DNA from: Candidatus Poribacteria bacterium | Lineage (GTDB): Bacteria > Poribacteria > WGA-4E > WGA-3G | NCBI GenBank assembly: GCA_022825665.1 | Contig: JAJDWI010000086.1 | Coordinates: forward strand, 838 to 64,837 | Direction: 5' to 3' | Length of the DNA: 64,000 nt | Shown here: positions 163-27,421 of the stretch, one piece after another | How positions within the stretch are numbered: the stretch's first letter is position 1 | Layout: every line of letters begins with the position of its first letter | The notes under the pieces: model-generated | Told to the model about the DNA's origin: nothing | Databases searched by the model: none | What the model saw: only the letters and a program-made list of their open reading frames with translations | Translations under genes and position numbers: made by a program

Positions 163-1247
163 ATATTGTTGTGTTAAGTGATAAAAAGCCAGGGCATTAC
201 AAACAATCATTAGGCATTATCAATAAAATACCAGATTGTCGTATGGAATGGCTTGAGATAGAATTCCAACATAAATGGCGCGATAATCTCCTACGCATAA
301 TCATGTGTGTTTCCGGAGGCATGCCACTGTCAACCTCAATGATTCGTTTCCTCCTTCGCTGGAGTCTTACTACTTCCTCCTACAATGCAGTTTTACAAAT
401 TCAAGGTATGGACTTAGTTCTTTCGACTGGATCATCCGTAGCTGCTGTTAATTTACTTCTCGGTAAACTCCTCAATGCTAAAACAGTCACCTGTCGCAGA
501 CCTTCGCCTATTGGTATCCGACATTTTGACCTTGCAATTCTACCGATGTTATCATGGAATAGTGCCAAAGACCGAAACAATGTATGCAAAACAATTGGTG
601 TCCCAAACCCAATTTCTCCTGACGTCCTAAAGACGAAGCGAGACAATCTGAAACAAGCCCTACACCTGCAAGAACGTCCAGTAATTGGAATCCTTTTAGG
701 AGGAACCGATCAATACGAGACAATAACGGTTGAAGATGCAAAACAGCTGCATACAACATGTGATAAAGTTGCTAAAACCATCAACGCGCAGATATTACTA
801 ACGACATCTCGAAGAACACCTACAGACGTTTCTAATTACTTAAAATCAAAGTTCACAAATGCGGATTGGTGTCCTTTGTTCATTGATCCTGATACACCTT
901 CAGATCTTGATGATCCGTATCAAACCATTCTATCAGCAAGTGATTTACTTATCGTAACAGCAGACAGTTTTTCAATGGTATGTGAAGCAGCATCCAGTGG
1001 TTGCAAGGTGATAGTTCTATCTCTCACACAGCAAAGACAGAAACAACATAAAAGGTATGAAGTTTATAGTTATATGCAAGAACAGTCGATATTGAATCTC
1101 TGTAGTCTTGAGGAACTTTCGCATGAAATTGATAGAATTTTAGCACTACAACATCAGAACACTATTCTCCGAGATACAGAAACAGCAGTGAGTGCAATCC
1201 AGCATCTATTTGAAAGTAATCATAAAAAAGATAATGGAACAATGTAA
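159..1247 (+). CDS. ELM1/GtrOC1-family (DUF1022) putative glycosyltransferase
   Basis: N-terminal SDKKPGHxxQSxG, plus TTSRRTP and VTADSxSMVCEA motifs typical of the family. Confidence 0.85.
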   Translation: MNIVVLSDKKPGHYKQSLGIINKIPDCRMEWLEIEFQHKWRDNLLRIIMCVSGGMPLSTSMIRFLLRWSLTTSSYNAVLQIQGMDLVLSTGSSVAAVNLLLGKLLNAKTVTCRRPSPIGIRHFDLAILPMLSWNSAKDRNNVCKTIGVPNPISPDVLKTKRDNLKQALHLQERPVIGILLGGTDQYETITVEDAKQLHTTCDKVAKTINAQILLTTSRRTPTDVSNYLKSKFTNADWCPLFIDPDTPSDLDDPYQTILSASDLLIVTADSFSMVCEAASSGCKVIVLSLTQQRQKQHKRYEVYSYMQEQSILNLCSLEELSHEIDRILALQHQNTILRDTETAVSAIQHLFESNHKKDNGTM

Positions 1248-1368
1248 GAAAATAGGTGTATTAAAAAGTAATCTATCCGTTAGAATAGTCTAACTATTCA
1301 CCAACCGATATTGACAACTATCATTAGTTAAAATGATTCAATTTATATTATTGTTATGGAGAAGAACA

Positions 1369-2682
1369 ATGAAAAACTATAGTGCCTATTTTGCTATTGC
1401 CCTCATAATGCTTCTGGGATTAACAGCCTTCTATATAGTCAATGCTGATACAAAAACCGTTGATGATCCATGGAAAACTTGGGTGGAACAACAGACTGAG
1501 ACTATGTTAAAAGCTGCTGGAGATATAGATAAAGAACGTTGGACGGAAATGCAATCTAATATTAAAGAACAGTTTTCTGCTATTGCCGCAGAATTAAAAA
1601 AAGATATTAGTTCTCCTCCCATGTTTGTAAAAGAGAATATAGATCATGATATCAAGAAAACCCTCAAGTATTTACTAACAGAAGAAATTATCAATTCTAA
1701 GAAAATAGACGATCTGATTAAAAAAATAACAGATGAAGACCTATCTTATATAGAAGAGCGTGTAGTTGTGGATAAATTGCCAGAATCCAAATTACACAAA
1801 GGTAATTCCAAAATCCAAGTAAAGACTTATTTTGACACGAAAAACAATGATTTGGAGATAACATCAGAAGCGCATGTCAATGCACATATTCTGAGAGATC
1901 TATTTGATAAAGATATCCGAAATCTGCCCAAAGACGTGGATCAAAATGTTGATGCATTACGTGAAGCTTATGACAAAGCATATAATGGCATGTTGAAAAC
2001 ATCCTCACAATACTTTACACATCAGAGAGATGGGAAGGTTGTTCTGAAGTACAAAATCCCTGCTCCCATAGAAGTAGTAGATGAAAAATATCCGCGAGAT
2101 GAATGGCTTCAAATGTTACTGGATGAAAAGATAAAAATTAGCAATTTCTATGAATATCAGGCATATCTGTTGGAACGAGATGTATTGGTCCACATTGAAA
2201 AGAACCCTAAGGTTTGGTCTTCAGGTCTCTTCGGTATTGATGCAACTGATGATTGGGAAACTTACAAAGAAGCATATATGCAGGAGAGGGTATACAAACT
2301 CAAACCATTCATCAGATCACAAATAATAATAGATGCCAAGAAAATCAGTGAAATGAAGGAAAAGATACTGAAACAGTCTGAGGATATGAAACATGACACT
2401 GATGAAGTTGCAGAGAAGGTTAGGGCAATAGTTGAGGAACTTAACAAAAAGTCAACTACAGCCCTTGATAAAGCTGACATAGTAAAGTTAATTGATGTTG
2501 ACCCAATCATAACTAAAGTTACCCCATCCATTACTACCAAGCCATACGTTCACACCAAGGTTCTCAAAGCCCTTTCTACAGAGAATGAATTAGAAAAAAA
2601 GATTGAAAAACTTGTTGATAGGATTGATAAGTTAATTGATAAACTTGAAGAAAATCAATCACAGTCTACAGAAACAGAATAA
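1369..2682 (+). CDS. Secreted or membrane-anchored hypothetical protein
   Basis: ATG 1369 follows GGAG. N-terminal hydrophobic segment and coiled-coil C-terminus. No recognisable family. Confidence 0.7.
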   Translation: MKNYSAYFAIALIMLLGLTAFYIVNADTKTVDDPWKTWVEQQTETMLKAAGDIDKERWTEMQSNIKEQFSAIAAELKKDISSPPMFVKENIDHDIKKTLKYLLTEEIINSKKIDDLIKKITDEDLSYIEERVVVDKLPESKLHKGNSKIQVKTYFDTKNNDLEITSEAHVNAHILRDLFDKDIRNLPKDVDQNVDALREAYDKAYNGMLKTSSQYFTHQRDGKVVLKYKIPAPIEVVDEKYPRDEWLQMLLDEKIKISNFYEYQAYLLERDVLVHIEKNPKVWSSGLFGIDATDDWETYKEAYMQERVYKLKPFIRSQIIIDAKKISEMKEKILKQSEDMKHDTDEVAEKVRAIVEELNKKSTTALDKADIVKLIDVDPIITKVTPSITTKPYVHTKVLKALSTENELEKKIEKLVDRIDKLIDKLEENQSQSTETE

Positions 2683-2704
2683 TCTTCCTACATTCACCTT
2701 AAAT

Positions 2705-2736
2705 AACAATGGCGAGGTACTACCCTCGCCATTGTT
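2705..2736. terminator. Hairpin between convergent genes (bidirectional terminator)
   Basis: Perfect 13-bp stem AACAATGGCGAGG / CCTCGCCATTGTT. Confidence 0.7.
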
Positions 2737-2793
2737 GTTTAACAGCAAAGAACACAAGAAGTGTTAATAAGAAACATGCTAATTTTCCATTGC

Positions 2794-3735
2794 TTATTGT
2801 GTTTCAGTTGAAATGTAATAACCTGAACCGAACAGATACCCATCGTGTCGGATCGCCCAGGTGCGTTTCAGTTCAGTTACACCACTTTCCGGATTTGGCC
2901 ACAAATAATCAATCCAGTCTCCTGTTACGGAAGCCTTAGCAATTTTTGTACCTAATGTTGACCCATCATGACGTTCTACATCCTCATCAAGCCATTCAAC
3001 ATCTTTGAGATCTGTACCTATGAAGTCTGGTCTTGGCGCGTGTGCGACAAAGTGATCGTTTTCATCAGTAATAAATACATACCACTGACCATCTATATTA
3101 GTTTTATCGTTGTAGTAGGTCGCAGTGGCTTCTTTTCCAGTATATTCGTAACGCGCAATTGCTTCCAAGACAATTGCATGTGTATACGCCGCTGGATCTT
3201 CTTTTGAAACAACAGGAGGTGTCGCAGGATCTGGTCTCCACGGCACATAATATCCTGAAGCAAAGAGGTAACCATCATACCGAATTGACCAGGTCCGCTT
3301 TTGTTCCAATTTGTTTGTTTCTGGATTCGGCCACAAATAATCAGTCCACTTTCCTTCTTCTGTCGCCATAGCTATTTCAGCCCCAAGGTCTGAACTATCA
3401 ATCCCTGGCAGTACTTTAAGATCTTGATCTATCAAATGTGGACTCTGAGCATGTGCGATAAAGTGGTCGTTTTCATCAGTTATGAACACATACCATTGAC
3501 CATCAATATTCGCAGGATCATTGTGATAGGATATTACGGCATCTTTACCATCAGATTTGTATAGATCAATGGCAGATTGAACTAATGCAACAGCATACGC
3601 CTCAGGATCATCCTTTGATGGTGCATCGGGTTGATCAACAACATCCATCACAGAATCTACCATTTGTTTTTCACATCCAGTAGTATATATTACTGCCAGT
3701 ATGAGAATAAGCAGTATTATGAAATAATTCCTCAA
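2794..3735 (-). CDS. Lipoprotein with two tandem single-Cache domains
   Basis: Lipobox-like TTGC, then two copies of NIDGQWYVFITDENDHFxAHA...DYLWPNPE...W(S/A)IRxDGYLFxSGYY. Confidence 0.85.
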   Translation of the reverse strand: MRNYFIILLILILAVIYTTGCEKQMVDSVMDVVDQPDAPSKDDPEAYAVALVQSAIDLYKSDGKDAVISYHNDPANIDGQWYVFITDENDHFIAHAQSPHLIDQDLKVLPGIDSSDLGAEIAMATEEGKWTDYLWPNPETNKLEQKRTWSIRYDGYLFASGYYVPWRPDPATPPVVSKEDPAAYTHAIVLEAIARYEYTGKEATATYYNDKTNIDGQWYVFITDENDHFVAHAPRPDFIGTDLKDVEWLDEDVERHDGSTLGTKIAKASVTGDWIDYLWPNPESGVTELKRTWAIRHDGYLFGSGYYISTETQ

Positions 3736-3768
3736 TTTGTAACTCCTTCATATAATTTTTCTCACTGA

Positions 3769-3857
3769 ATTGTAATCAGAATTATCGGGTTTGTCAAATT
3801 TCTTAAGTATGAGGACAAAACGAAATATTTGACATAAACTCTAAATTGTAGTATCAT
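3769..3857. promoter_or_regulatory. Back-to-back sigma70 promoters
   Basis: + strand: TTGACA(3829)-17-TATCAT(3852). - strand: TTGACA(3797)-17-TACAAT(3774). Confidence 0.65.
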
Positions 3858-3947
3858 ACATAGTGAAATATATCTAACCAATTCATTCTTCAAAAACTAT
3901 TGGCAAGATGGGTGTTTCATTTACCCATTAGGAGTATTGTATATATT

Positions 3948-5933
3948 ATGCCAAATGCCCTATTCGTTTATCCTAAATTCCCACCTTCTTATTGGGGATT
4001 TAAATATGCCTTAGAATTCCTCGGTAAAAAATCTTCAATGCCACCGCTTGGTTTATTGACCATTGCCGGAATGTTCCCAAATAATTACAACTTACAAGTC
4101 GTTGATATGAACATTGAGACGTTAACTGATGAACATCTCGATTGGGCAGATATGGTCCTCACGTCAACAATGATTGTACAGAAAGAATCGTTATATGAGG
4201 TAGTAGAACGATGCAACCGGGCAGCTGTGCCAATAATCGCTGGTGGTCCTCATCCTACATCCTACTATGACAATATCAAAGAAGAGTGTGATGGAACAGT
4301 TGATCATTTCCTATTTGGTGAAGTAGAGGAAATATTTGAAGGTTTTTTGACAGATTTTGAGAGTGGTTCTGCAGATGAAGTTTACAAGGAAACAAGAAAA
4401 CCTGATATAACAAAGACACCTCCACCTCGATATGACCTTATTGATATAAACGCTTACGGTTCAATGGCACTCCAATTCTCTCGCGGATGTCCATTCAACT
4501 GTGAATTTTGTGACATTACTAAGTTATTTGGTCGAGTGCCACGCACAAAAAGCAATGAACAAATGCTCAATGAGTTTGAATTACTGTATAAACTTGGTTG
4601 GAGAGGGGCTATGTTCGTTGTTGATGACAATTTTATAGGAAACAAACGTGATGCAATGCGGTTACTGCCAGCAGTTCAGGAGTGGCAAAAGGAACGCGAC
4701 TTCCCATTTACACTTTATACCGAAGCGAGTGTGAATCTTGTTGAAATACCAGAAATGCTTGATGCAATAACTGCTGCAGGATTTAATATGGTTTTCCTTG
4801 GAATTGAAACGCCAAATGAAGAAGCATTGATCACAACTTCTAAAGGACAAAACACAAGTAAAGAAGAAGAAGCGGGAAGTTACCTGTTAAACGCTATTAG
4901 AAAAATACAGAAAGCAGGTTTGGAGGTGACTGGAGGATTTATTATAGGGCTTGATGGAGACACAGAATTTGACTCTCACATTAATTTTATTCAGAATGCT
5001 GGTATCCCAATGGCTATGGCTGGCTTACTCACAGCGTTGAAAGAAACCGATCTGTGGCACAGACTGAAAATGGAAGACAGATTACTTGTAGAGTCCAGCG
5101 GTAACAATACCGATATGAGTTTGAATTTTGTCCCTGAAATGCCGCGTGAGCAACTTATCCAAGAATACCGACGTGTTATTTCAACACTTTATGACCCCAC
5201 TTTGAAGAACTACTTTGATCGCTGCTATACTTTGCTCAAACACATGCCACGTACCCCACATAATGTTAGACCTATAAAGAAAGAAGAAGTACGTGCATTT
5301 TTGCTATCAATCAAGCGACAACTCTTCTCCAGACAGGGCATAGAATATGCAAAATTTTTAGTTCGGACAATAAAACTTGATAGAAAAATGTTTCCTGAAG
5401 CTGTAAAATTAGCAGTCATGGGTTACCATCTGGAAAAAATGACCCGCCATACAGTTGCAGTAGAGGATTTTAGAACGTTTCTGAGTGGCGAATTGGAGTC
5501 CTATAAAACAAAAATTGCACAATATGTCAATTCTCAAGGTGATAAGATACAGGAATTGCAGAAATACGCATTACAACTTAGCGCAAGAGTTAAGAAAGAA
5601 TACGAAACTATACATATAGATTTTCAATATGCTGCCCACAATGCCCTTGCAAATTTTCATGATTCCTTGTTTGCTGAATATTTAGAGGCAGAATTGACGG
5701 CATTTAAAGAAGCGGTTGCTGCATTTGCAAAAGCACAAAGTGAACGTATTGGCGAGTTACAAGCGTATGTTAGCAATCTCTTAACCCGTGTCCGCGCACA
5801 ACAAACACAACTCCATGCTGATTTCAAACAGAACCTTCAGGAAACCTTTGATGCTTTCACGGAATCCATATCCAATTATTTAGAGCAACGTTTCGGTTCC
5901 ATACCATTTCAGATTGAAGAATTGCAAACCTAA
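3948..5933 (+). CDS. B12-binding radical SAM protein with DUF4070 (HpnP-like architecture) and duplicated C-terminal helical extension
   Basis: PPLGLLTIA and GGPHPT cobalamin-binding domain, SRGCPFNCEFC motif, DDNFIG. Probable start is ATG 3948. Confidence 0.9.
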   Translation: MPNALFVYPKFPPSYWGFKYALEFLGKKSSMPPLGLLTIAGMFPNNYNLQVVDMNIETLTDEHLDWADMVLTSTMIVQKESLYEVVERCNRAAVPIIAGGPHPTSYYDNIKEECDGTVDHFLFGEVEEIFEGFLTDFESGSADEVYKETRKPDITKTPPPRYDLIDINAYGSMALQFSRGCPFNCEFCDITKLFGRVPRTKSNEQMLNEFELLYKLGWRGAMFVVDDNFIGNKRDAMRLLPAVQEWQKERDFPFTLYTEASVNLVEIPEMLDAITAAGFNMVFLGIETPNEEALITTSKGQNTSKEEEAGSYLLNAIRKIQKAGLEVTGGFIIGLDGDTEFDSHINFIQNAGIPMAMAGLLTALKETDLWHRLKMEDRLLVESSGNNTDMSLNFVPEMPREQLIQEYRRVISTLYDPTLKNYFDRCYTLLKHMPRTPHNVRPIKKEEVRAFLLSIKRQLFSRQGIEYAKFLVRTIKLDRKMFPEAVKLAVMGYHLEKMTRHTVAVEDFRTFLSGELESYKTKIAQYVNSQGDKIQELQKYALQLSARVKKEYETIHIDFQYAAHNALANFHDSLFAEYLEAELTAFKEAVAAFAKAQSERIGELQAYVSNLLTRVRAQQTQLHADFKQNLQETFDAFTESISNYLEQRFGSIPFQIEELQT

Positions 5934-5955
5934 CAGTTGACATTTCTATGTTATC

Positions 5956-7476
5956 ATGGTTCCAATTCAGATTGAAGATCTCTCCTATACTTATCCAAGT
6001 CGCGAAACACCAACACTGAATGGTATAAATGCTCAAATATCACCCGGTGATTTTGTGCTGTTAACAGGTCCAACCGGATGTGGTAAATCTACGTTTCTCC
6101 GCACTATAAACGGACTGATTCCCCATTCCTCTGGGGGAACACTCACTGGAACTGTCTGTATTAACAATACTGACGTTTCCACGCAACCCCTCGCAACGAC
6201 ATGTCAACAAGTCTCCCTTCTTTTTCAAAATCCTGATGATCAATTGTTTTGTACACTGGTAGAGGATGAAATCGCATTTGGACTCGAAAATCTTGGTATT
6301 CCACCTGATAAAATCAGACAACGAATAACTACAGCCTTAGAACAGGTAGGTCTGAGTGGATTTGAAAATAGACGAATTGCAGAACTCTCTGGAGGAGAGA
6401 AACAACGTATAGCACTTGCATCAATCTGTGCAATGCAACCACAGGTTTTACTGCTTGATGAACCTACAAGTCATCTGGATCCACGTGCAACGAGAGATAT
6501 TCTCAACATTGTCAAACAATTGAATACTGATCTTGGAATTACTATTGTATTGGCAACACACCGAGTCAAACAGGTACAACATCTATGTAACCGTGTATGG
6601 TTGATGCATGAGGGAAATCTACGCTTAGACTTACCAAAAAATGAAGCGTTTCAAGACGATACAATTTTCCATAACTTAGGTGTCGAGTTGCCAGATTCAA
6701 CAGATACTACCACACCGATGTCCACAAAACGCACTTCATTACAGCATTCTAATGGGACTATACTTGGTGTCCATAAACTACGCTTTCAATATCCAAACAG
6801 TGATATAAATGCTGTCAGTGATGTTTCTTTAAAGGTGTCACGTGGAGAAGTCGTTGCCGTAATGGGGGAAAATGGTTCAGGTAAAACAACGCTACTCCAT
6901 CTGATATGCGGTTTGCTGCGACCTACAGCCGGCGAAGTAAAGGTTGATGGAAAGACAACGCAACAAATAAAACTTCGCAAATTTGCTGGCAAAGTAGGAA
7001 TAGTATTTCAGAATCCAGACCTATTGTTGCAAGCTGAGACGGTGAGGAGTGAGGTGAGATTTGGTCCCAAGAATCTGAAGGTGAAACCTGACAAACTGAA
7101 TGCCTTAGTCAATGACACGTTGACTCAGTTTAGGTTGTCTGATTTTGCGGAAGAAGCACCGTATTCTCTTTCTCGCGGTCAGCGACAACGCGTTGCAGTT
7201 GCGTCAACTTTTTCCCTACATCCCGATATATTCTTGCTTGATGAACCGACATCTGGTCAAGATGCTCGACACTTACAAAGTATGATGGACAGACTCTGTA
7301 ATCAGATCCGACAACAGAATAAAACTCTTATGTTTGCCACGCATAACATTGAACTCACCCAGAAATATGCGGATCGCATCCTATTGATGCATGAAGGAAA
7401 ATTAATTTATGATGGATCACCTATTACTGCATTTAATGATCAGGAACTAATCGAAAAGTGTTCGTTGACGTTTTAG
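5956..7476 (+). CDS. ECF transporter duplicated ATPase (A-A' fusion)
   Basis: Two ABC domains (GPTGCGKST and GENGSGKTT), FQNPD Q-loops, LSGGE/LSRGQ signatures, LLDEPT. Confidence 0.9.
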   Translation: MVPIQIEDLSYTYPSRETPTLNGINAQISPGDFVLLTGPTGCGKSTFLRTINGLIPHSSGGTLTGTVCINNTDVSTQPLATTCQQVSLLFQNPDDQLFCTLVEDEIAFGLENLGIPPDKIRQRITTALEQVGLSGFENRRIAELSGGEKQRIALASICAMQPQVLLLDEPTSHLDPRATRDILNIVKQLNTDLGITIVLATHRVKQVQHLCNRVWLMHEGNLRLDLPKNEAFQDDTIFHNLGVELPDSTDTTTPMSTKRTSLQHSNGTILGVHKLRFQYPNSDINAVSDVSLKVSRGEVVAVMGENGSGKTTLLHLICGLLRPTAGEVKVDGKTTQQIKLRKFAGKVGIVFQNPDLLLQAETVRSEVRFGPKNLKVKPDKLNALVNDTLTQFRLSDFAEEAPYSLSRGQRQRVAVASTFSLHPDIFLLDEPTSGQDARHLQSMMDRLCNQIRQQNKTLMFATHNIELTQKYADRILLMHEGKLIYDGSPITAFNDQELIEKCSLTF

Positions 7477-7522
7477 GATATTGAACGTTTCTTGGATCTT
7501 CTAAAAAAAGTGTATAATCAAA

Positions 7523-8386
7523 ATGTTTATATGTAAATCTAAACTGGAATCCAGAACTAAAATCATAATCATGATGATAATCGGGTGTCTTGTCATTTTG
7601 CTGGACAGTCCATCTGCATTGTTGGTCTGTTTTTTGGCAAGTATCCTCCTTGTTGTCTCATCTATGCCTACTCTAAAGCAAATTCGATTACTGTTGATCT
7701 TCCTTTTCTTTACCACTTGGGGACTCATTTACAGTCAAGGCATATTCTATAATGCATTTCCTCGCACGGTATTGATTACACTCGTCCCTGTAGATTTTCC
7801 TCTCATTGGTAAGTGGACAGGTGGTATTCATGTGTATCGTGAGGGGTTGTTTCACGGGATTATTCAATCATTAAGGTTCAATTCTACGCTTGTTATCGGT
7901 TGTTATATTGTGTGGAGCACACAACCACGTGACCTTCTTCTTGCTTTGTCGCAATTGCGTGTGCCGGGGGCACTTGCCTTTATGGTGACAACTGCATTAC
8001 ACTTTATACCCGTGATTGCCTCTGAAGCCGCAGCGGTGATACGTTCACAGAGATTACGAGGGGCCCGTTATCTACGGTTCAATCTGTTTGCATCTGTACG
8101 AGGTGTCGTCAATAGTTTTCGTCCTATCTTAGCAGGAAATATACGACATGCGACAAACCTCGGAGAATCGGTGGAGAGTAGAGGATTCTCTCCAGAGACT
8201 TCAATGCAAAGGACATCTCTGCGGTCATCACAGATGGGTAGGTTAGATTATGGTTTGATTGCGGTACTGTCCCTTTGCCTGATATGTGTTATTGCATTGA
8301 AAGTGCTATATTTCTGTTATGCGAATGGCATCTATTATGGATCTTGGTTAAGGGGTTTGTATACCTTTACCCGTGAGATTCTGTAG
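7523..8386 (+). CDS. ECF transporter transmembrane T component (EcfT/CbiQ)
   Basis: Multiple TM helices. QRLRG and ESRGF coupling motifs. Confidence 0.88.
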   Translation: MFICKSKLESRTKIIIMMIIGCLVILLDSPSALLVCFLASILLVVSSMPTLKQIRLLLIFLFFTTWGLIYSQGIFYNAFPRTVLITLVPVDFPLIGKWTGGIHVYREGLFHGIIQSLRFNSTLVIGCYIVWSTQPRDLLLALSQLRVPGALAFMVTTALHFIPVIASEAAAVIRSQRLRGARYLRFNLFASVRGVVNSFRPILAGNIRHATNLGESVESRGFSPETSMQRTSLRSSQMGRLDYGLIAVLSLCLICVIALKVLYFCYANGIYYGSWLRGLYTFTREIL

Positions 8387-21732: not shown

Positions 21733-23205
21733 TCAATTTTCTGGTCGCATTTGTGGAAACAGGATTACATCTCGGATAGAATATTGGTCTGTCAATAGCA
21801 TTGTTAGTCGGTCAATTCCTATGCCAAGTCCACCTGTAGGTGGCATTCCGTATTCCAATGCCCGTAAATAATCTTCGTCAACCATGAATGCTTCCTCATC
21901 ACCTTTTGCTAAATTACTTGCTTGTTCCATAAAACGTTGTCGTTGGTCAATTGGGTCGTTAAGTTCACTAAACGCATTACCAACTTCCATTCCACAAATA
22001 AAAAATTCAAACCTTTCCACAAGTTCTGGATTCTCCGGTTTCTTTTTTGCAAAGGGTGATACTTCAATAGGATAATCGTAGACTATAGTCGGTTGAATAA
22101 GTTTTGATTCTACAAGTACGTCAAATATTTCAGCGATAATTTCTCCAATTGATTCGTCTCCATCCAATTCAATCCCAGCACTTTTTGCTTTCGTAGAAAT
22201 TTCATGTTCAGATAGAGTTTCAGGATCAATGTTAGTATATTTTTGAATAGACTCAATCATTGTCATTCTTCGCCATGGGGGAGTAAAATCTATTTCTTGG
22301 TCTTGGTATGATATTTTAGTCGTACCGTGTATGTTTTTTACAGTCTTAGCAATTAGATTTTCTGTTAACTCCATAATTTCCAAGTAATCTGCATAAGCCT
22401 GATAGAGTTCAAGCATGGTAAATTCGGGATTATGATCTCTATCCATTCCTTCATTACGAAAATCACGTGAAAACTCGTAGACTCTATCAAACCCTCCAAC
22501 AATAAGCCGTTTTAGGTAAAGTTCATTGGCAATACGAAGATATAAAGGTTGGTCTAATGTGTTATGATATGTTGTAAATGGTCGTGCGCTTGCACCACCG
22601 TATATTGGTTGAAGAACAGGGGTTTCTACTTCAATAAATTCCTGTTCGTTTAACATATCCCGAATGGCTTGAACAATTTGTGTGCGTTTGACGAATACCT
22701 CTTTCACTTCAGGGTTCATGATGAGATCGGCATATCGTTGTCTATACCGTGTCTGCTTGTCTTGTAAACCGTGCCATTTTTCCGGGAGCGGTCGGATAGA
22801 TTTCGAGAGTAGTTCAACGGAGTCAGCAAGGATGGTTAATTCACCAGTCCGAGTCCGAAAAACAATTCCATTTACCCCAATAATATCTCCTACATCAAAC
22901 CGACGATAAACCAGGTAAGATTCTGCCCCTATGTCATCTCGGCGCACGTAAATCTGAATTTGTCCAGTGCTATCTTGCAAATGTGCGAAACTACTTTTAC
23001 CATGATCGCGCTTGGTCATAATCCTGCCTGCGACAGTGACACGGTTGGTTTCATCTGGAGTTTCAGTGACATCCTCGAATTCTACGCGGATTTTTTCTGT
23101 TGTGTGGGTAGGAGCATATTGATGTGGATAGGGGTCTATACCTGCTTTTCGTATTTCACTCAGTTTTTCCTTGCGTTGCCGCATTAAGTCATTTGTCTCT
23201 TCCAT
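21733..23205 (-). CDS. lysS: Lysyl-tRNA synthetase class II
   Basis: PLPEKWHGL, YRQRYADL, FRNEG, HNPEFT and PPTGGLGIGIDRL. Confidence 0.98.
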   Translation of the reverse strand: MEETNDLMRQRKEKLSEIRKAGIDPYPHQYAPTHTTEKIRVEFEDVTETPDETNRVTVAGRIMTKRDHGKSSFAHLQDSTGQIQIYVRRDDIGAESYLVYRRFDVGDIIGVNGIVFRTRTGELTILADSVELLSKSIRPLPEKWHGLQDKQTRYRQRYADLIMNPEVKEVFVKRTQIVQAIRDMLNEQEFIEVETPVLQPIYGGASARPFTTYHNTLDQPLYLRIANELYLKRLIVGGFDRVYEFSRDFRNEGMDRDHNPEFTMLELYQAYADYLEIMELTENLIAKTVKNIHGTTKISYQDQEIDFTPPWRRMTMIESIQKYTNIDPETLSEHEISTKAKSAGIELDGDESIGEIIAEIFDVLVESKLIQPTIVYDYPIEVSPFAKKKPENPELVERFEFFICGMEVGNAFSELNDPIDQRQRFMEQASNLAKGDEEAFMVDEDYLRALEYGMPPTGGLGIGIDRLTMLLTDQYSIRDVILFPQMRPEN

Positions 23206-23331
23206 GTGTCTACCCTCCTTTCAACTTTATGAACAACTTAATTATACCTTCATTTTCTGTTTGTTGCAACATGAAAACTTTGGAAGAACCGATTTGATCT
23301 ACTTTTTGAATAACTACTTGATTACCTACAT

Positions 23332-23481
23332 TTAAAACTTTTTACTTCTGAGTTCTCCCCACAAAACTAACTTTTTCCCAACAGCGTTTACACTAAGAAC
23401 TTCTTCAACAGAGGATTGGAAACCCATCTATTTTGATGGACTGTTCGGTTTAAGATTGTAATCATGTTTGTGAATATTTAC
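23332..23481 (-). pseudogene. C-terminal remnant of the third beta-helix paralog
   Basis: Translates VNIHKHDYNLKPNSPSK*MGFQSSVEEVLSVNAVGKKLVLWGELRSKKF*, colinear with the C-termini of the two intact paralogs. In-frame TAG at 23428-23430. Confidence 0.85.
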
Positions 23482-23560
23482 CAAACGTTGCGGTGTGAAA
23501 GCCCAATGCTTTAGATTTGGGATGAAACACCGCCAAACGTCTCCTTCGTTAAAAATAACC

Positions 23561-23589
23561 TTGATTTTATCCAAGAAATGTGGTATCCT
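23561..23589 (+). promoter_or_regulatory. Promoter inside the IS200/IS605 element
   Basis: TTGATT-17-TATCCT with extended -10 TGG. Predicted start ~23596 coincides with the first stem of the structured region. Confidence 0.55.
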
Positions 23590-23595
23590 ATTTAT

Positions 23596-24022
23596 ACCAA
23601 CTGGATAGGAGAGCAATCATTCACTACCTTGTGAATGTCCTATCCAATCCGATTGCTCGGACAGAGTTGGTGTTGGAAAAACCGACAATACCATATTCGG
23701 ACTATACTTATGAGGTTATGATCCTCACTTCGTTTATGATGAGTTCTGAAATCGCATCATAGAGATCGTGTAGGTGTTCCCTACCCGACCGCGATAGAAA
23801 CAGAACGCCAAGAAAAAGTATCTGGGTCGCGCATTTGGGGAATATACGGACCCCGTTAGTCGTGCCTTGGCGGGCACCCCCGCAGTTGCTGCAACGGTCA
23901 ACTCGGCTTAAAACTGAGTGAGTATGCTATAAGCATATAAAAGATGCCCACATTTTCAAAATACGCAAGGCGTGAGAAGATGACCTAAGGAACCCCAATC
24001 CTTTAGGTTTGGGAGCCGTCAG
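23596..24022 (+). ncRNA. Putative structured ncRNA (5' pseudoknot plus omega/reRNA-like 3' part)
   Basis: Dense perfect stems, including crossing pairs GGATAGGA/TCCTATCC and GAGCAATC/GATTGCTC. Ends at the IS right-end hairpin. Confidence 0.5.
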
Positions 24023-24587
24023 TATCTCCATACAGGTAAACACCTCCTCCAATATCAGAACCTGCACGGTTGCCCTTTATTATACAGGATGATAGATATA
24101 AATTAGAATCAATACAATATATTCCACCCCCGGTTCCACTGGAATCAAAAAAATCTCCTGCGCTGTTTTCAGTTATGACACAGTTTCTAATTGTTGGTGA
24201 GGAATTGTTACAATATATACCAGCCCCATTTAGATGTAATCCATTTGTTATAGTGAATCCATCTAATACCGAGTTGTTGGTTTCTCTGCTGTGGAATATG
24301 AATCCTCTTGTTTTTTCCTTTCTTTTACAATCAATTATTGTCACCTCTGGACCATTTTGAGACTTAAGTGTTATCTGTTTCCCTTTGAAATCAATGTTTA
24401 CATTTCCTATACCTTTGTAAACACCATCAGCAACTAATACAGTATCACCATCTATTGCTGTATTAATACCTGCTTGTATTGTAGGATGTTCAGCAGGCAC
24501 ACGAATCACTGCTGCAAATGTATGTACATTGGCGAAAAGTAATAATAGAATAATCATTATATTGACAATAACCCTACTAAATTTCAT
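24023..24587 (-). pseudogene. N-terminal part of third beta-helix paralog, truncated by the IS element
   Basis: ATG 24587 after GGAGG. VPAEHPTIQAGI...GDTVLVADG and GGGIYC repeats. Homology stops at the IS right end. Confidence 0.88.
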
Positions 24588-24589
24588 GA

Positions 24590-26002
24590 TTACCTCCATC
24601 TATTATGTCTATGGTCCTTTCGTTTTATATCTGCCCATCTTAACAACCGTTTACCAACAGGTACAACACTTAGGGCACCTCCAACCGAAGTTTGTGGTCC
24701 CATACCTAATACTGGACTATCTCCCCTAAGCCTATAGTCTCCTCGGTCAGGATTTCTAAAAAGTGGATCCATATCTATGTTGTCTTCATAAACAAACAAA
24801 TTTCCATCAGGTTCTTGTCCAATATGATCGAGTCCATCCCTAATAACGTTTGATTTAAATACTATCCCTCTACCAGCAACAAATACCTCAGGATTTCTGT
24901 CATCCGAATTATTACCCCAGACAATTGAATTAGTTAACTTAAATGAGGTTAAACTAAAAACATATAAACCACCACCTCTCTCGCTTGCAGTATTCCGCGT
25001 GATAGTGCAATTACTAATTTCTGCATATCCATGCTTAGACTCACCGACTTCAATTCCACCACCCCACCTTGTGGCTATGTTTTCAGCTATAATACAGTTA
25101 GAAACTTCGATAATTCCTGATGGACTACAGTAAATTCCTCCACCGTTTTTTGCTGTGTTTTGTCTGATGTATGAATTGTCGATCTTTATTCTGGAATACT
25201 CACTTGCTTCCAAACCACCCCCAGTGTTTTGGGCAATTTCACAATTTGTAATGAATGTGGTACCTGCAAAAAATGAACATACAACACCGCGTAAACTATT
25301 ATGTAATATCTTAGAATCTTTGATTTCACAACTGACGAAATCCAGTATATGAACGCCACTGCCAGTATTCTCTGAAATAATACAATTGATTAGTTGCGGT
25401 TGAAAATACGTGTCTCTAAATCCACCATCAATTTCATTACTTCCATCAAAGTATATTCCACCACCATACGTGTATTCTGCAATATTGTTTGATATTGTAG
25501 AATCAATTATTATTGCTTCAGAATTGAAACAATATATTCCACCACCCCGTCCTGTACCACTTTCGTCCCTAAGTGCTTTGTTCCATGAAATGACACAATT
25601 CTTAATTGTTGGAGAAGCATTATTGCAGTAAATCCCACCACCATTTAAATCTCTACCATTTTTAATAGTAAATCCATCTAATACTGATGTATGTGTTTCT
25701 TCATTTTGAAAGGTAAAACCACGCGTATTTGGGGTCCACAAACAGTTGATAATTGTCCCTTCAGGTCCATTCTTGGACTTAACTATAATCTGTTTTCCCT
25801 TAAAGTCTATGTTGACATTACCGTCACCTTTGTATACTCCATTAGCAACTAAAACCGTATCCCCGTTTTGTGCAGAGTCAATACCCGCTTGAATTGTTGG
25901 TTGATCGGCAGGTACATTAATTGTTACAGCATAGGTTGAGATATTCACACAAAGCAAAATTATATAGATAAAGATGTGGACACAAAATCTATTAATGTTC
26001 AT
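24590..26002 (-). CDS. Secreted right-handed parallel beta-helix (pectin lyase-like/PMP-repeat) protein
   Basis: Signal peptide, VPADQPTIQAGID...GDTVLV, GGGI-x-C repeats, DPLF...DYRL, C-terminal LSVVPVGKRLLRWADIK. Confidence 0.9.
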   Translation of the reverse strand: MNINRFCVHIFIYIILLCVNISTYAVTINVPADQPTIQAGIDSAQNGDTVLVANGVYKGDGNVNIDFKGKQIIVKSKNGPEGTIINCLWTPNTRGFTFQNEETHTSVLDGFTIKNGRDLNGGGIYCNNASPTIKNCVISWNKALRDESGTGRGGGIYCFNSEAIIIDSTISNNIAEYTYGGGIYFDGSNEIDGGFRDTYFQPQLINCIISENTGSGVHILDFVSCEIKDSKILHNSLRGVVCSFFAGTTFITNCEIAQNTGGGLEASEYSRIKIDNSYIRQNTAKNGGGIYCSPSGIIEVSNCIIAENIATRWGGGIEVGESKHGYAEISNCTITRNTASERGGGLYVFSLTSFKLTNSIVWGNNSDDRNPEVFVAGRGIVFKSNVIRDGLDHIGQEPDGNLFVYEDNIDMDPLFRNPDRGDYRLRGDSPVLGMGPQTSVGGALSVVPVGKRLLRWADIKRKDHRHNRWR

Positions 26003-26029: not shown

Positions 26030-27421
26030 TTAGTTACGCTTCAGGTCTGCCCATTTAATTATTCGTTTCCCTGTAGAGGACACACTAAGAGAATCCTCAA
26101 TAAAATTCTCTTCCCCTTGATCATTTGCTTCTTGATCCTCTTCTTCACGGGATGCGGTTGCTCCCATTTCTGTTGCCGGACTTACACGTTTAAGTGTATA
26201 ATTCCCATTCTCAGCATTTACGAACAGTGGGTCTTCATCAATGCTATCTTTATAAACAATAGATTTAGCCCATTGCTCCCCAAATCCTTCAAGTCCGCCT
26301 CGTAAAACACATGAAATAATACGAACTGTTGGACCAGCTCCGAAAAATTCTGGGTGAGTACCATTTGATGTATTGCCCCAGATAATAGATTTAGTGCATT
26401 TGAAGGTTGAACCTTCAAGAAGAGCATGCACCCCGCCACCTCTATTATTCGCTGAGTTTCTTGTAATTGTACAATATGATATGTTTACATGTCCAAAGGT
26501 AGAAATAGAATCAATACCACCACCAGATTCTGTTGCTATGTTCTCTGCAATAACACATCCAATAACGTTAAGCCTTGATGTTGGACTACAAAGGATACCG
26601 CCACCGTTTTCAGCTGTATTCTGTTTGATAATTGAATCAGTAATTGTTAAACCGGAATATTCCCTACATTCAACACCACCATCCAAGTTCTGTGAGATTA
26701 TACAATTCGTAATTTTTGCACCTGAAAAAGAGTTACAAAAAATACCCCGACCAATGTTTTGAGAGACTGTGCTTTTTGTTATTGTTGCGGATGCATGAAG
26801 TAAACAATAAATTCCATGTCCTTTATTTTCAGATATATCACAATTGATTAGATTCGGTCCACTAATAGGTTTTTCTATTACCTCACCATTCCTTGTATCC
26901 GGTTCTAAAATCAGGATACCATTGCCATCTCGGTTGTTTGTAATCTGACAGTCAATTATTTTAGCCTCAGAAACAATACAGAATATTCCACCACCGCTGT
27001 TATCCGTTATAATACAATTCTTTATCGTCGGTGACGAAACATCACAAAAGATTCCACCACCATCACTATTATTTCCATTCTTAATTGCAAAACCCTCTAA
27101 CACAGTATCATTGGTTTCCTTATTTTGAAAAATAAACCCTCGTGAATTTGGTGTGGATAGACAGTTGATTATAGCTGCCTCTGGACCATTCTGTGATTTT
27201 AAGGTAATTTGTTTACCCTTGAAATCTATGTTAGTATTACCTTCACCACTATAGATTCCATCAGCAACTAAAACCGTATCACCGTCTTTTGCAGCATCAA
27301 TGCCTGCTTGAATTGTCGGCTGATCTGAAGGCACTTGAACCACCGCTGCAAATAGAATCGCATTTACACATAAACAACAAATTACGATTGATATATACAG
27401 AAAAGTTTTATAGATATTCAT
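26030..27421 (-). CDS. Secreted right-handed parallel beta-helix protein (paralog)
   Basis: Same architecture as 24590-26002. C-terminal LSVSSTGKRIIKWADLKRN. Confidence 0.9.
   Translation of the reverse strand: MNIYKTFLYISIVICCLCVNAILFAAVVQVPSDQPTIQAGIDAAKDGDTVLVADGIYSGEGNTNIDFKGKQITLKSQNGPEAAIINCLSTPNSRGFIFQNKETNDTVLEGFAIKNGNNSDGGGIFCDVSSPTIKNCIITDNSGGGIFCIVSEAKIIDCQITNNRDGNGILILEPDTRNGEVIEKPISGPNLINCDISENKGHGIYCLLHASATITKSTVSQNIGRGIFCNSFSGAKITNCIISQNLDGGVECREYSGLTITDSIIKQNTAENGGGILCSPTSRLNVIGCVIAENIATESGGGIDSISTFGHVNISYCTITRNSANNRGGGVHALLEGSTFKCTKSIIWGNTSNGTHPEFFGAGPTVRIISCVLRGGLEGFGEQWAKSIVYKDSIDEDPLFVNAENGNYTLKRVSPATEMGATASREEEDQEANDQGEENFIEDSLSVSSTGKRIIKWADLKRN

Follow-up and report, generated by a model that had tools for sequence, protein, structure and literature searches.

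The motif that starts at position 23596 of the window (the whole stretch of 64,000 nucleotides of Candidatus Poribacteria DNA analysed here) is a real pseudoknotted RNA fold. It has no earlier description, covaries strongly and forms the leader in IS200/IS605 elements of the TnpB lineage in sponge-symbiont bacteria. The window's copy heads the RNA of an element that carries no gene, and there we read it, with a probability of about 0.55, as a 5′ domain that stabilises a guide-type RNA, which TnpB would use in trans. The features on which the argument rests are collected in Table 1.

Table 1. Positions in the window of the gene-less element and of the parts of its RNA.
Feature	Position	Strand	Description
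TTAC flank adjoining the left end	23478-23481	+	target/transposon-adjacent motif position of IS200/IS605 elements
ORF-less IS200/IS605-type element (PATE-like)	23482-24021	+	540 bp; limits of the repeat from BLAST (own genome) and aligned relatives
Left-end subterminal hairpin	23490-23533	+	GCGGTGT 23490-23496 with ACACCGC 23527-23533; CCCAA 23502-23506 with TTGGG 23517-23521; loop GCTTTAG
Promoter	23561-23589	+	-35 TTGATT 23561-23566; 17-nt spacer; TG 23581-23582; -10 TATCCT 23584-23589
Whole domain	23596-23671	+	three-way junction of P1, P2 (stem A plus inner hairpin) and P3
P1 (closing helix)	23596-23602 with 23665-23671	+	ACCAACT with AGTTGGT; read directly
Stem A	23603-23610 with 23638-23645	+	GGATAGGA with TCCTATCC; read directly
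Stem B as first noted	23611-23618 with 23651-23658	+	GAGCAATC with GATTGCTC; read directly
Inner hairpin	23619-23624 with 23631-23636	+	ATTCAC with GTGAAT, plus the pair C23618-G23637; read directly
"Competing" hairpin	23648-23652 with 23657-23661	+	TCCGA, loop TTGC, TCGGA; read directly
hp2 hairpin	23672-23686	+	GTTGG, loop AAAAA, CCGAC
Middle of the non-coding RNA	23687-23950	+	covarying helices; invariant blocks, e.g. GGTTATGATCC, GTGATGAG, AAGTATC, TGGCGGG
3′ module	23951-24021	+	stem CATTTTC 23951-23957 with GAAGATG 23976-23982; hairpin 23963-23973; alignment A6
3′ module, end	23984-24021	+	CCTAAGG 23984-23990; right-end hairpin 23994-24013; AGCCGTCA 24014-24021

An earlier note on this DNA had described four stems in the motif, and direct reading of the sequence confirms all of them where it had placed them. 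The region 23590-23690 is predicted to fold with -37.4 kcal/mol on the + strand (z = -5.71), a value equalled by none of 200 shuffles, and with -35.0 kcal/mol on the - strand (z = -4.81). A covariance model of the domain, R1, gave 94 matches, of which the 49 distinct ones make up the alignment (A2) used for the pairing statistics. Paired cells amount to 95.1% in A2 against 80.2% in shuffles, a level reached by none of 500, and the fraction falls to 25-45% when the partners are slid by 1-3 columns. Compensatory changes among the homologs are present in several helices: both sides have changed in five of the seven pairs of P1, in four of the six pairs of the inner hairpin, in all three pairs of the outer P3 stem and in all five of hp2. 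Stem A is almost invariant, with one compensated change in each of three pairs. The hp2 hairpin, which follows the domain directly, repeats the sequence of P1 and tracks it in five of the six P1 sequence classes. It occupies the position that, in the leaders of tnpB genes, is taken by a second P1-complementary site over the start region.

The order of the strands had been taken to mean a pseudoknot, and this is borne out by the pairing of loop B with the P3 loop, which is kept across changing sequences. The crossing stem joins the internal loop of P2 (23611-23617) to the loop of P3 (23652-23658). It was first counted as eight pairs; seven positions pair as proposed, and the eighth, C23618, is not part of B; its partner is G23637, and all 49 rows have CG there. 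Among the 49 distinct copies, the first pair of B is AU in 33 rows, GC in 11, GU in two and UA in one, and the second and sixth pairs change from AU to UA in two rows each. A wider set of leaders comprises 44 matches from varied loci to a broader model, R2, in which A, B and the P3 region occur in 35 distinct combinations. In 28 of these 35, loop B and the P3 loop can form at least six contiguous Watson-Crick pairs, through 15 different B sequences. The 20 distinct B sequences form 6.1 pairs on average with their own partners and 3.19 with swapped ones, and at least six pairs arise in 12 of 380 swaps. The seven combinations that fall short of six are five rows of the C122 type, with a 4-5-nt loop and three to four pairs, the degenerate C136 and L193 (five pairs). 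A smaller test that also counted G-U pairs went in the same direction, with weaker figures per family.

The note had seen, in addition, a hairpin that could sequester the 3′ strand of B, and had suggested a switch between the two. The hairpin exists; it is not simply an alternative to B. Its two inner pairs use the same columns as B, and in copies L009 and L115 these inner pairs are gone while B is retained via a compensated change. Its outer three to six pairs show covariation and form alongside B, the 3′ strand of B being the loop of the hairpin. The loss of the inner pairs where B is kept, together with the covariation of the outer P3 pairs, thus argues for a pairing of the P3 loop with the P2 internal loop rather than for two mutually exclusive hairpins.

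The proposal that the motif matches no described RNA family holds against Rfam 15: the whole window gave no match at the gathering score, and in the region 22800-24600 the sole match at E ≤ 10 was to TUG1_2 (24300-24385, E = 4.7), which we take as chance. The three tnpB loci that carry the leader gave two chance matches at E ≤ 1 and nothing else. The likeness to HDV-like ribozymes that had been drawn from the strand order finds no support. No HDV or other ribozyme family matched 22800-24600 at E ≤ 10, and no block of unpaired nucleotides is common to the divergent leader families. The fold itself is a three-way junction with one loop-loop pairing, whereas an HDV-like ribozyme is a nested double pseudoknot with a catalytic core. 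We also rejected a group I intron, as in an IStron: there is no group I match in Rfam, the window copy lies antisense to a truncated gene, and the copies have no orientation bias.

The motif was thought to be carried by an insertion sequence, and this is supported by end hairpins, a TTAY flank and ends in common with TnpB genes. The element has no terminal inverted repeats. It has subterminal hairpins at both ends, in direct orientation and both on the + strand, with related loops (GCTTTAG at the left, CCTTTAGG at the right), and the stems of the left-end hairpin show compensated changes among copies. The flank was examined by a script that sought TTAY 23-32 nt before the left-end loop motif. 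It returned TTAC (24) or TTAT (15) in 39 of 40 distinct left ends; the case of L080 is spurious, which leaves 38 of 40 (L080 and L096 fail, and L095 is doubtful). The sequence 5′ of TTAY is unconserved among the left ends. At the right, the aligned copies in relatives stop sharply at GCCGTCA (...GGGAGCCGTCA), corresponding to 24021 of the window. The left end and promoter of the element also stand ahead of a gene for a 419-aa TnpB in locus L150, and related ends are found with TnpB genes on contigs C122, C147 and C170 of the window's own genome. No ORF is conserved among 37 distinct copies, the longest ones differing in strand and place, and a tblastn search of the element with three TnpB proteins gave a best E of 0.58. 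Judged by its ends and its relatives, the element is a gene-less member of the IS200/IS605 family, of the TnpB lineage. The own genome has two Y1 transposase matches (PF01797, over the cut-off) and 28 TnpB TNB-domain matches.

The element is a repeat. In the 170-contig assembly to which the window belongs, BLAST finds the stretch from about 23477 to about 24022 repeated, with some 30 left and 13 right ends, mostly at contig ends; the genome holds at least ten copies of the element and 11 matches to R1. Complete genomes of the same genus have full copies of 69-81% identity, matches being found in 18 of the 41 genomes searched, and the copy number reaches at least 13 in relative G020 and at least 15 in G003. 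The flanks are unrelated among the copies of this multi-copy element. When the pattern of stems A and B was sought in one genome each of 185,579 species, it turned up in 42 stretches, all 42 of them in Candidatus Poribacteria, and in metagenomes it turned up in four contigs. A contig of another strain, found in runs X11 and X6 from a sponge sample, shares the window's flanks up to 23481 and from 24023 and has 692 other letters between them; by this alignment, the same site is occupied there by a different variant of the element, against a stretch of 541 nt in the window. Further gene-less elements follow the same plan (in the own genome C136:4700-5243 and C95:17150-17800, and on C121 and C123). 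They represent at least one further family, with a left-end hairpin, promoter, pseudoknot domain, a length of about 540 bp and the right end GGGGAGCGGTCA, and with an unrelated middle. The loop pairing reads GTTGTAA:TTACAAC in the C95 copy and is decayed in the C136 copy.

Reduced forms of the ends occur as well. A left-end hairpin of about 60 nt stands alone at C128:34253-34312 of the own genome. Genome G019 has, at locus L152 (C1:1116623-1116668), a hybrid hairpin of about 45 nt (...TTTACCAAACGC...GGGAGCCGTCA) whose 5′ half is that of a left end and whose 3′ half is that of a right end; it looks as though the end hairpins had recombined with each other and everything between them had been lost.

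In the window, the motif is flanked on one side by a lysyl-tRNA synthetase gene (21733-23205, - strand), from which the element is separated by only about 270 nt, and on the other by an ORF of 198 aa (24003-24599, - strand). This ORF is the N-terminal part of a third paralogue of the beta-helix genes at 24590-26002 and 26030-27421; 24175-24315 and 25590-25730, for example, are 71% alike between the truncated paralogue and its neighbour. It enters the right end of the element, stops at 24003-24005 and lacks some 270 C-terminal codons. From the sequence, the truncation looks like the outcome of an insertion followed by a deletion.

The motif had been placed directly behind a promoter, and the conserved spacing in relatives bears this out; the window's own copy (TTGATT-N17-TATCCT) matches the consensus at eight of 12 positions and was not flagged by a consensus scan. 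Among 43 distinct upstream regions, the 17-nt spacer is kept in 41, as is TG at the extended -10 position, also in 41, and in 37 a gap of 6 nt separates the -10 hexamer from P1 (P1 starts 7 nt after the -10). Copies in another genus (L176) have a perfect TTGACA-N17-TATAAT. Going by conservation in these relatives, what precedes the motif is a conserved sigma-70-type promoter. Because the distance from the -10 to P1 is fixed, P1 should start at about +1. Two sequence repeats may be mentioned here. Just after hp2, at 23688-23696, most copies have ATACCACA(T), the reverse complement of the extended -10 region (A)TGTGGTAT (23577-23585). The 3′ module contains a block similar to the one after hp2, GATACCACA / GATGCCCACA, and so do right ends of tnpB elements.

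The same fold is found as the leader of tnpB genes. The 150 nt before TnpB start codons have the same order of helices in wholly different sequences. R1, run without filters, detects these leaders with E = 4e-6 to 0.02, and the broader R2 does so with E = 2.6e-15 to 6e-5, with 23 matches in the own genome. At the level of aligned sequence and predicted pairing, these matches show that the domain of the gene-less elements is homologous to the tnpB leaders. Its distribution follows TnpB: R2 finds the domain in 83 of 121 genomes of the phylum (70 of 81 in family f1, 12 of 19 in f3 and none of 20 in six other families), and the TnpB TNB domain is present in 96 of the same 121 (77 of 81 in f1, 17 of 19 in f3, none of nine in f2), so that the R2 domain is found only in two families rich in TnpB.

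The tnpB-linked leaders have one feature more. Fifteen of 16 contain a second complement, of 8-9 nt, to the 5′ strand of P1, at most 20 nt after P1. This second site covers the AUG itself (C170, C122 and L191 types) or a purine-rich stretch just before it (the type of genus g6); in the sixteenth leader, L043, the AUG lies inside the 3′ strand of P1. Since the 5′ strand of P1 can pair either within the domain or with the start region, the leader is laid out like a device for translational control, and the fold probably controls the translation of tnpB. The pseudoknot would favour the form in which the domain is closed over the form in which the start region is paired. In several leader families, the 3′ strand of P1, which is the first partner site, contains the starts of short upstream reading frames. 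In the leaders L047, L058/L189 and L186, such frames end overlapping the AUG of tnpB (AUGA), an arrangement that suggests translational coupling on top of the helix switch.

In the gene-less elements, the domain is followed by a conserved RNA instead of a gene. From P1 to the right end, 37 distinct copies measure 423-469 nt, and the window copy about 426 nt. For the whole RNA, the RNAalifold consensus of 23 copies (two genera) has 64 predicted pairs, and compensated changes are seen in 35 of these; it also shows invariant single-stranded blocks. One invariant block, GUGAUGAG at 23746-23753 (columns ~155-162 of alignment A5), opens a covarying stem; it may resemble a box-C / k-turn or hammerhead-like core, and has no hammerhead match in Rfam. 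An nhmmer profile of the middle (23721-23860) matches ORF-less copies only. The 3′ module has a structure of its own, in which both the stem and the hairpin covary. Its strand CCTAAGG (23984-23990) is complementary to the loop of the right-end hairpin, and strand and loop change together: CCTAAAGG:CCTTTAGG, GCTAAAG:CTTTAGC and GCTGAAG:CTTCAGC. No terminator-like site occurs between 23728 and 24200. The position of the RNA would suit an omega RNA, in which the scaffold ends at the right-end boundary and the flank supplies the guide.

The relation of this 3′ part to tnpB elements is confined to its end. A model of the 3′ module, R3, matches the right ends of tnpB elements with E = 2.7e-4 to 0.3, via the last ~45 nt, and an nhmmer profile of 23861-24021 matches them over profile positions 130-167 only. 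No tnpB element was found with the same right end (GAGCCGTCA) or with sequence resembling the part of the RNA before its last ~45 nt, and hence no cognate TnpB was identified. By eye, a terminal pseudoknot of the ISDra2 type was not found on A5 or A6, where the last eight columns are almost invariant and covariation is unreadable.

Metatranscriptome contigs from two libraries of two studies cover 23477-23664 and 23715-24019; carrying no strand, start or end information, they are a weak hint of transcription. In runs X11 and X6, 23688-23807 is uncovered at 85% likeness, which we take to mean that the copies in that sample have a different middle. The RNA and DNA contigs both end at 24018-24019, as expected at the boundary of a repeat. 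The X11 pieces have a depth of 1,200-7,637 against 110 for a flank contig, and the DNA run of the same sample has 48-65 against 13, a comparison that is suggestive only.

The mechanism that we propose is the following. The motif would be the 5′-terminal folding domain of a transposon RNA, transcribed from the sigma-70-type promoter just inside the left end of the element, and the 7-nt internal loop of its P2 arm pairs with the P3 loop into a loop-loop pseudoknot. In the sister elements that bear tnpB, the same domain forms the leader of the mRNA, and the 5′ strand of P1 has two possible partners, one within the domain and the second site over the start codon or ribosome-binding region. There it would most likely set the amount of TnpB translated, and it would also give the transcript a base-paired 5′ end. 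In the window copy, the domain heads the conserved, structured non-coding RNA of ~426 nt that reaches the right end. We read this RNA as a guide-type (omega-RNA-like) transcript that is driven by a promoter and would rely on TnpB and TnpA from other loci of the genome, with the pseudoknot domain as its stabilising, folding 5′ module. A nuclease-resistant 5′ cap had been among the ideas of the earlier note, and a nuclease-resistant or stabilising 5′ domain is still a live reading.

The same evidence can be arranged otherwise. In the ORF-less family, across two genera and 49 distinct copies, A and loop B hardly change, in contrast to P1, the inner hairpin, P3 and hp2, which show free variation. 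Such near-invariance suggests sequence-specific recognition, which would be superfluous for a mere stabiliser, and we know of no omega RNA for which a structured 5′ domain of such size is a requirement. In ISDra2, moreover, the 5′ 115 nt are described as dispensable (PMC10097598), which counts against the need for a large 5′ domain. The junction could be a new class of riboregulator that gates the synthesis of TnpB by a choice between two partners of one strand, and the gene-less elements would have taken it over to lead a new, promoter-driven long RNA with a guide or effector role; we give this reading a rather low probability. In another reading, the domain is a regulatory decoy or sensor. 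It would have a site for a protein (TnpB, TnpA or some host factor) or for a small ligand, tnpB translation would be under the control of that factor, and the abundant ORF-less RNAs would titrate or report it instead of acting as guides. The constancy of A and B speaks for it, as do the two alternative partners of P1 in 15 of 16 tnpB leaders, which have the layout of a switch, and the way in which hp2 tracks the sequence of P1. Between leader families, however, A and B change completely, with compensation, and share no unpaired block, unlike ligand-binding aptamers, and the factors named are candidates; we find a decoy or sensor rather doubtful. That the RNA has no role of its own, the ORF-less elements being tnpB-deleted shells that move by their ends, would explain why ends and leader are inherited from tnpB elements, and would suit the solo end hairpins and the minimal left/right hybrid hairpin. 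A relic of this kind is nevertheless unlikely, given that the RNA is held to 423-469 nt, that its middle helices have compensated changes across two genera, that the promoter is kept in 41 of 43 upstream regions and that no trace of tnpB coding sequence is left.

The remaining alternatives are still less probable. A compact pseudoknotted junction at the start of a transcript, with a block downstream (GUGAUGAG) that may resemble a hammerhead or k-turn core, invites the thought of a self-cleaving or other small ribozyme; the empty Rfam searches at both thresholds and the want of a common unpaired core argue against one, and cleavage in the tnpB elements would part the leader from its gene, so that we consider it very improbable. 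IS200/IS605 elements move as top-strand single-stranded DNA, and the fold is on the same strand as the end hairpins, as would befit a DNA structure read by the Y1 transposase during transposition. To this, too, we give little credence: the fixed place of the fold 7 nt after the -10 and its pairing with the start codon are features of an RNA, and the known contacts of the transposase are with the subterminal hairpins and not with the interior. Nor does the element look like a mobile promoter that drives a downstream host gene, with the motif as the new leader of that gene. Among 28 copies, one of them without an ORF, the next ORF downstream runs in the direction of the element in 14 of 27 and against it in 13 of 27 (by rough ORF calls), and the window copy points antisense into the truncated gene, which makes such a role highly unlikely.

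TnpB elements are the ancestors of Cas12 nucleases and have been studied almost entirely via their 3′ guide RNA; to our knowledge, the control of TnpB synthesis from the left end has been little described. A leader fold backed by covariation and present in 83 of 121 Poribacteria genomes, with a pairing that reaches the start region, offers a concrete and testable control device. The gene-less derivatives indicate that leader and right end can stay together around a conserved RNA of 430 nt. If this RNA is a trans-acting guide, as we favour, the element would be an exceptionally elaborate example of a transposon that subsists on nothing but RNA, and a source of compact natural RNA modules. If the riboregulator reading is true, the long RNA would enable a transposon to persist although it encodes no protein, or would work on the cell's pool of TnpB.

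Among known systems, the gene-less elements come closest to PATEs, which according to the discussion of one preprint "often encode" omega RNAs for TnpB in trans (bioRxiv 10.1101/2023.03.14.532601); a PATE with IStron ends is mentioned in a figure legend of another (bioRxiv 10.1101/2023.11.20.567912). Like the PATEs in the former account, they have end hairpins without genes, would be mobilised in trans and have a right end that codes for RNA (bioRxiv 10.1101/2023.03.14.532601). They differ from PATEs in their internal promoter, in an RNA of ~430 nt that is conserved over its whole length and in the pseudoknot domain at its 5′ end, and only their last ~45 nt resemble the right ends of tnpB elements. 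The omega RNA of ISDra2 is described as a 116-nt scaffold that overlaps tnpB, with a pseudoknot of -6..-2 with -106..-102 (PMC10097598). Like it, the RNA studied here is a structured one with a pseudoknot, located at the right end and running in the direction of the flank; unlike the one described for ISDra2, this pseudoknot lies 350-425 nt from the right end and is also found upstream of tnpB genes (PMC10097598). Its position and its occurrence upstream of tnpB mean that it is not the scaffold pseudoknot of ISDra2. The curated Rfam RNAs of this transposon family include IS605-orfB-I (RF03065) and HEARO (RF02033) (PMC11701678). They too are structured RNAs linked to IS605 elements, and neither matches the window or, at E ≤ 1, the three leader-bearing tnpB elements. 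The freely accessible full-text literature, to which our search was confined, held nothing on point on a pseudoknot in tnpB leaders or on the TnpB of Poribacteria.

The leader of IS200 tnpA hides the ribosome-binding site in a stem-loop. In Salmonella, the 5′ UTR of the tnpA mRNA is reported to be processed into a regulatory small RNA (PMC5435999). With this leader the present one shares a promoter just inside the left end, a stable 5′ structure that can pair with the translation start and the capacity to be a separate RNA. Whereas the IS200 leader is a simple stem-loop on a transposase gene, the fold described here is a three-way junction with a loop-loop pseudoknot, and it occurs on tnpB and on gene-less elements, with its partner site duplicated. 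Of the known systems, the leader of IS200 tnpA is its nearest functional parallel.
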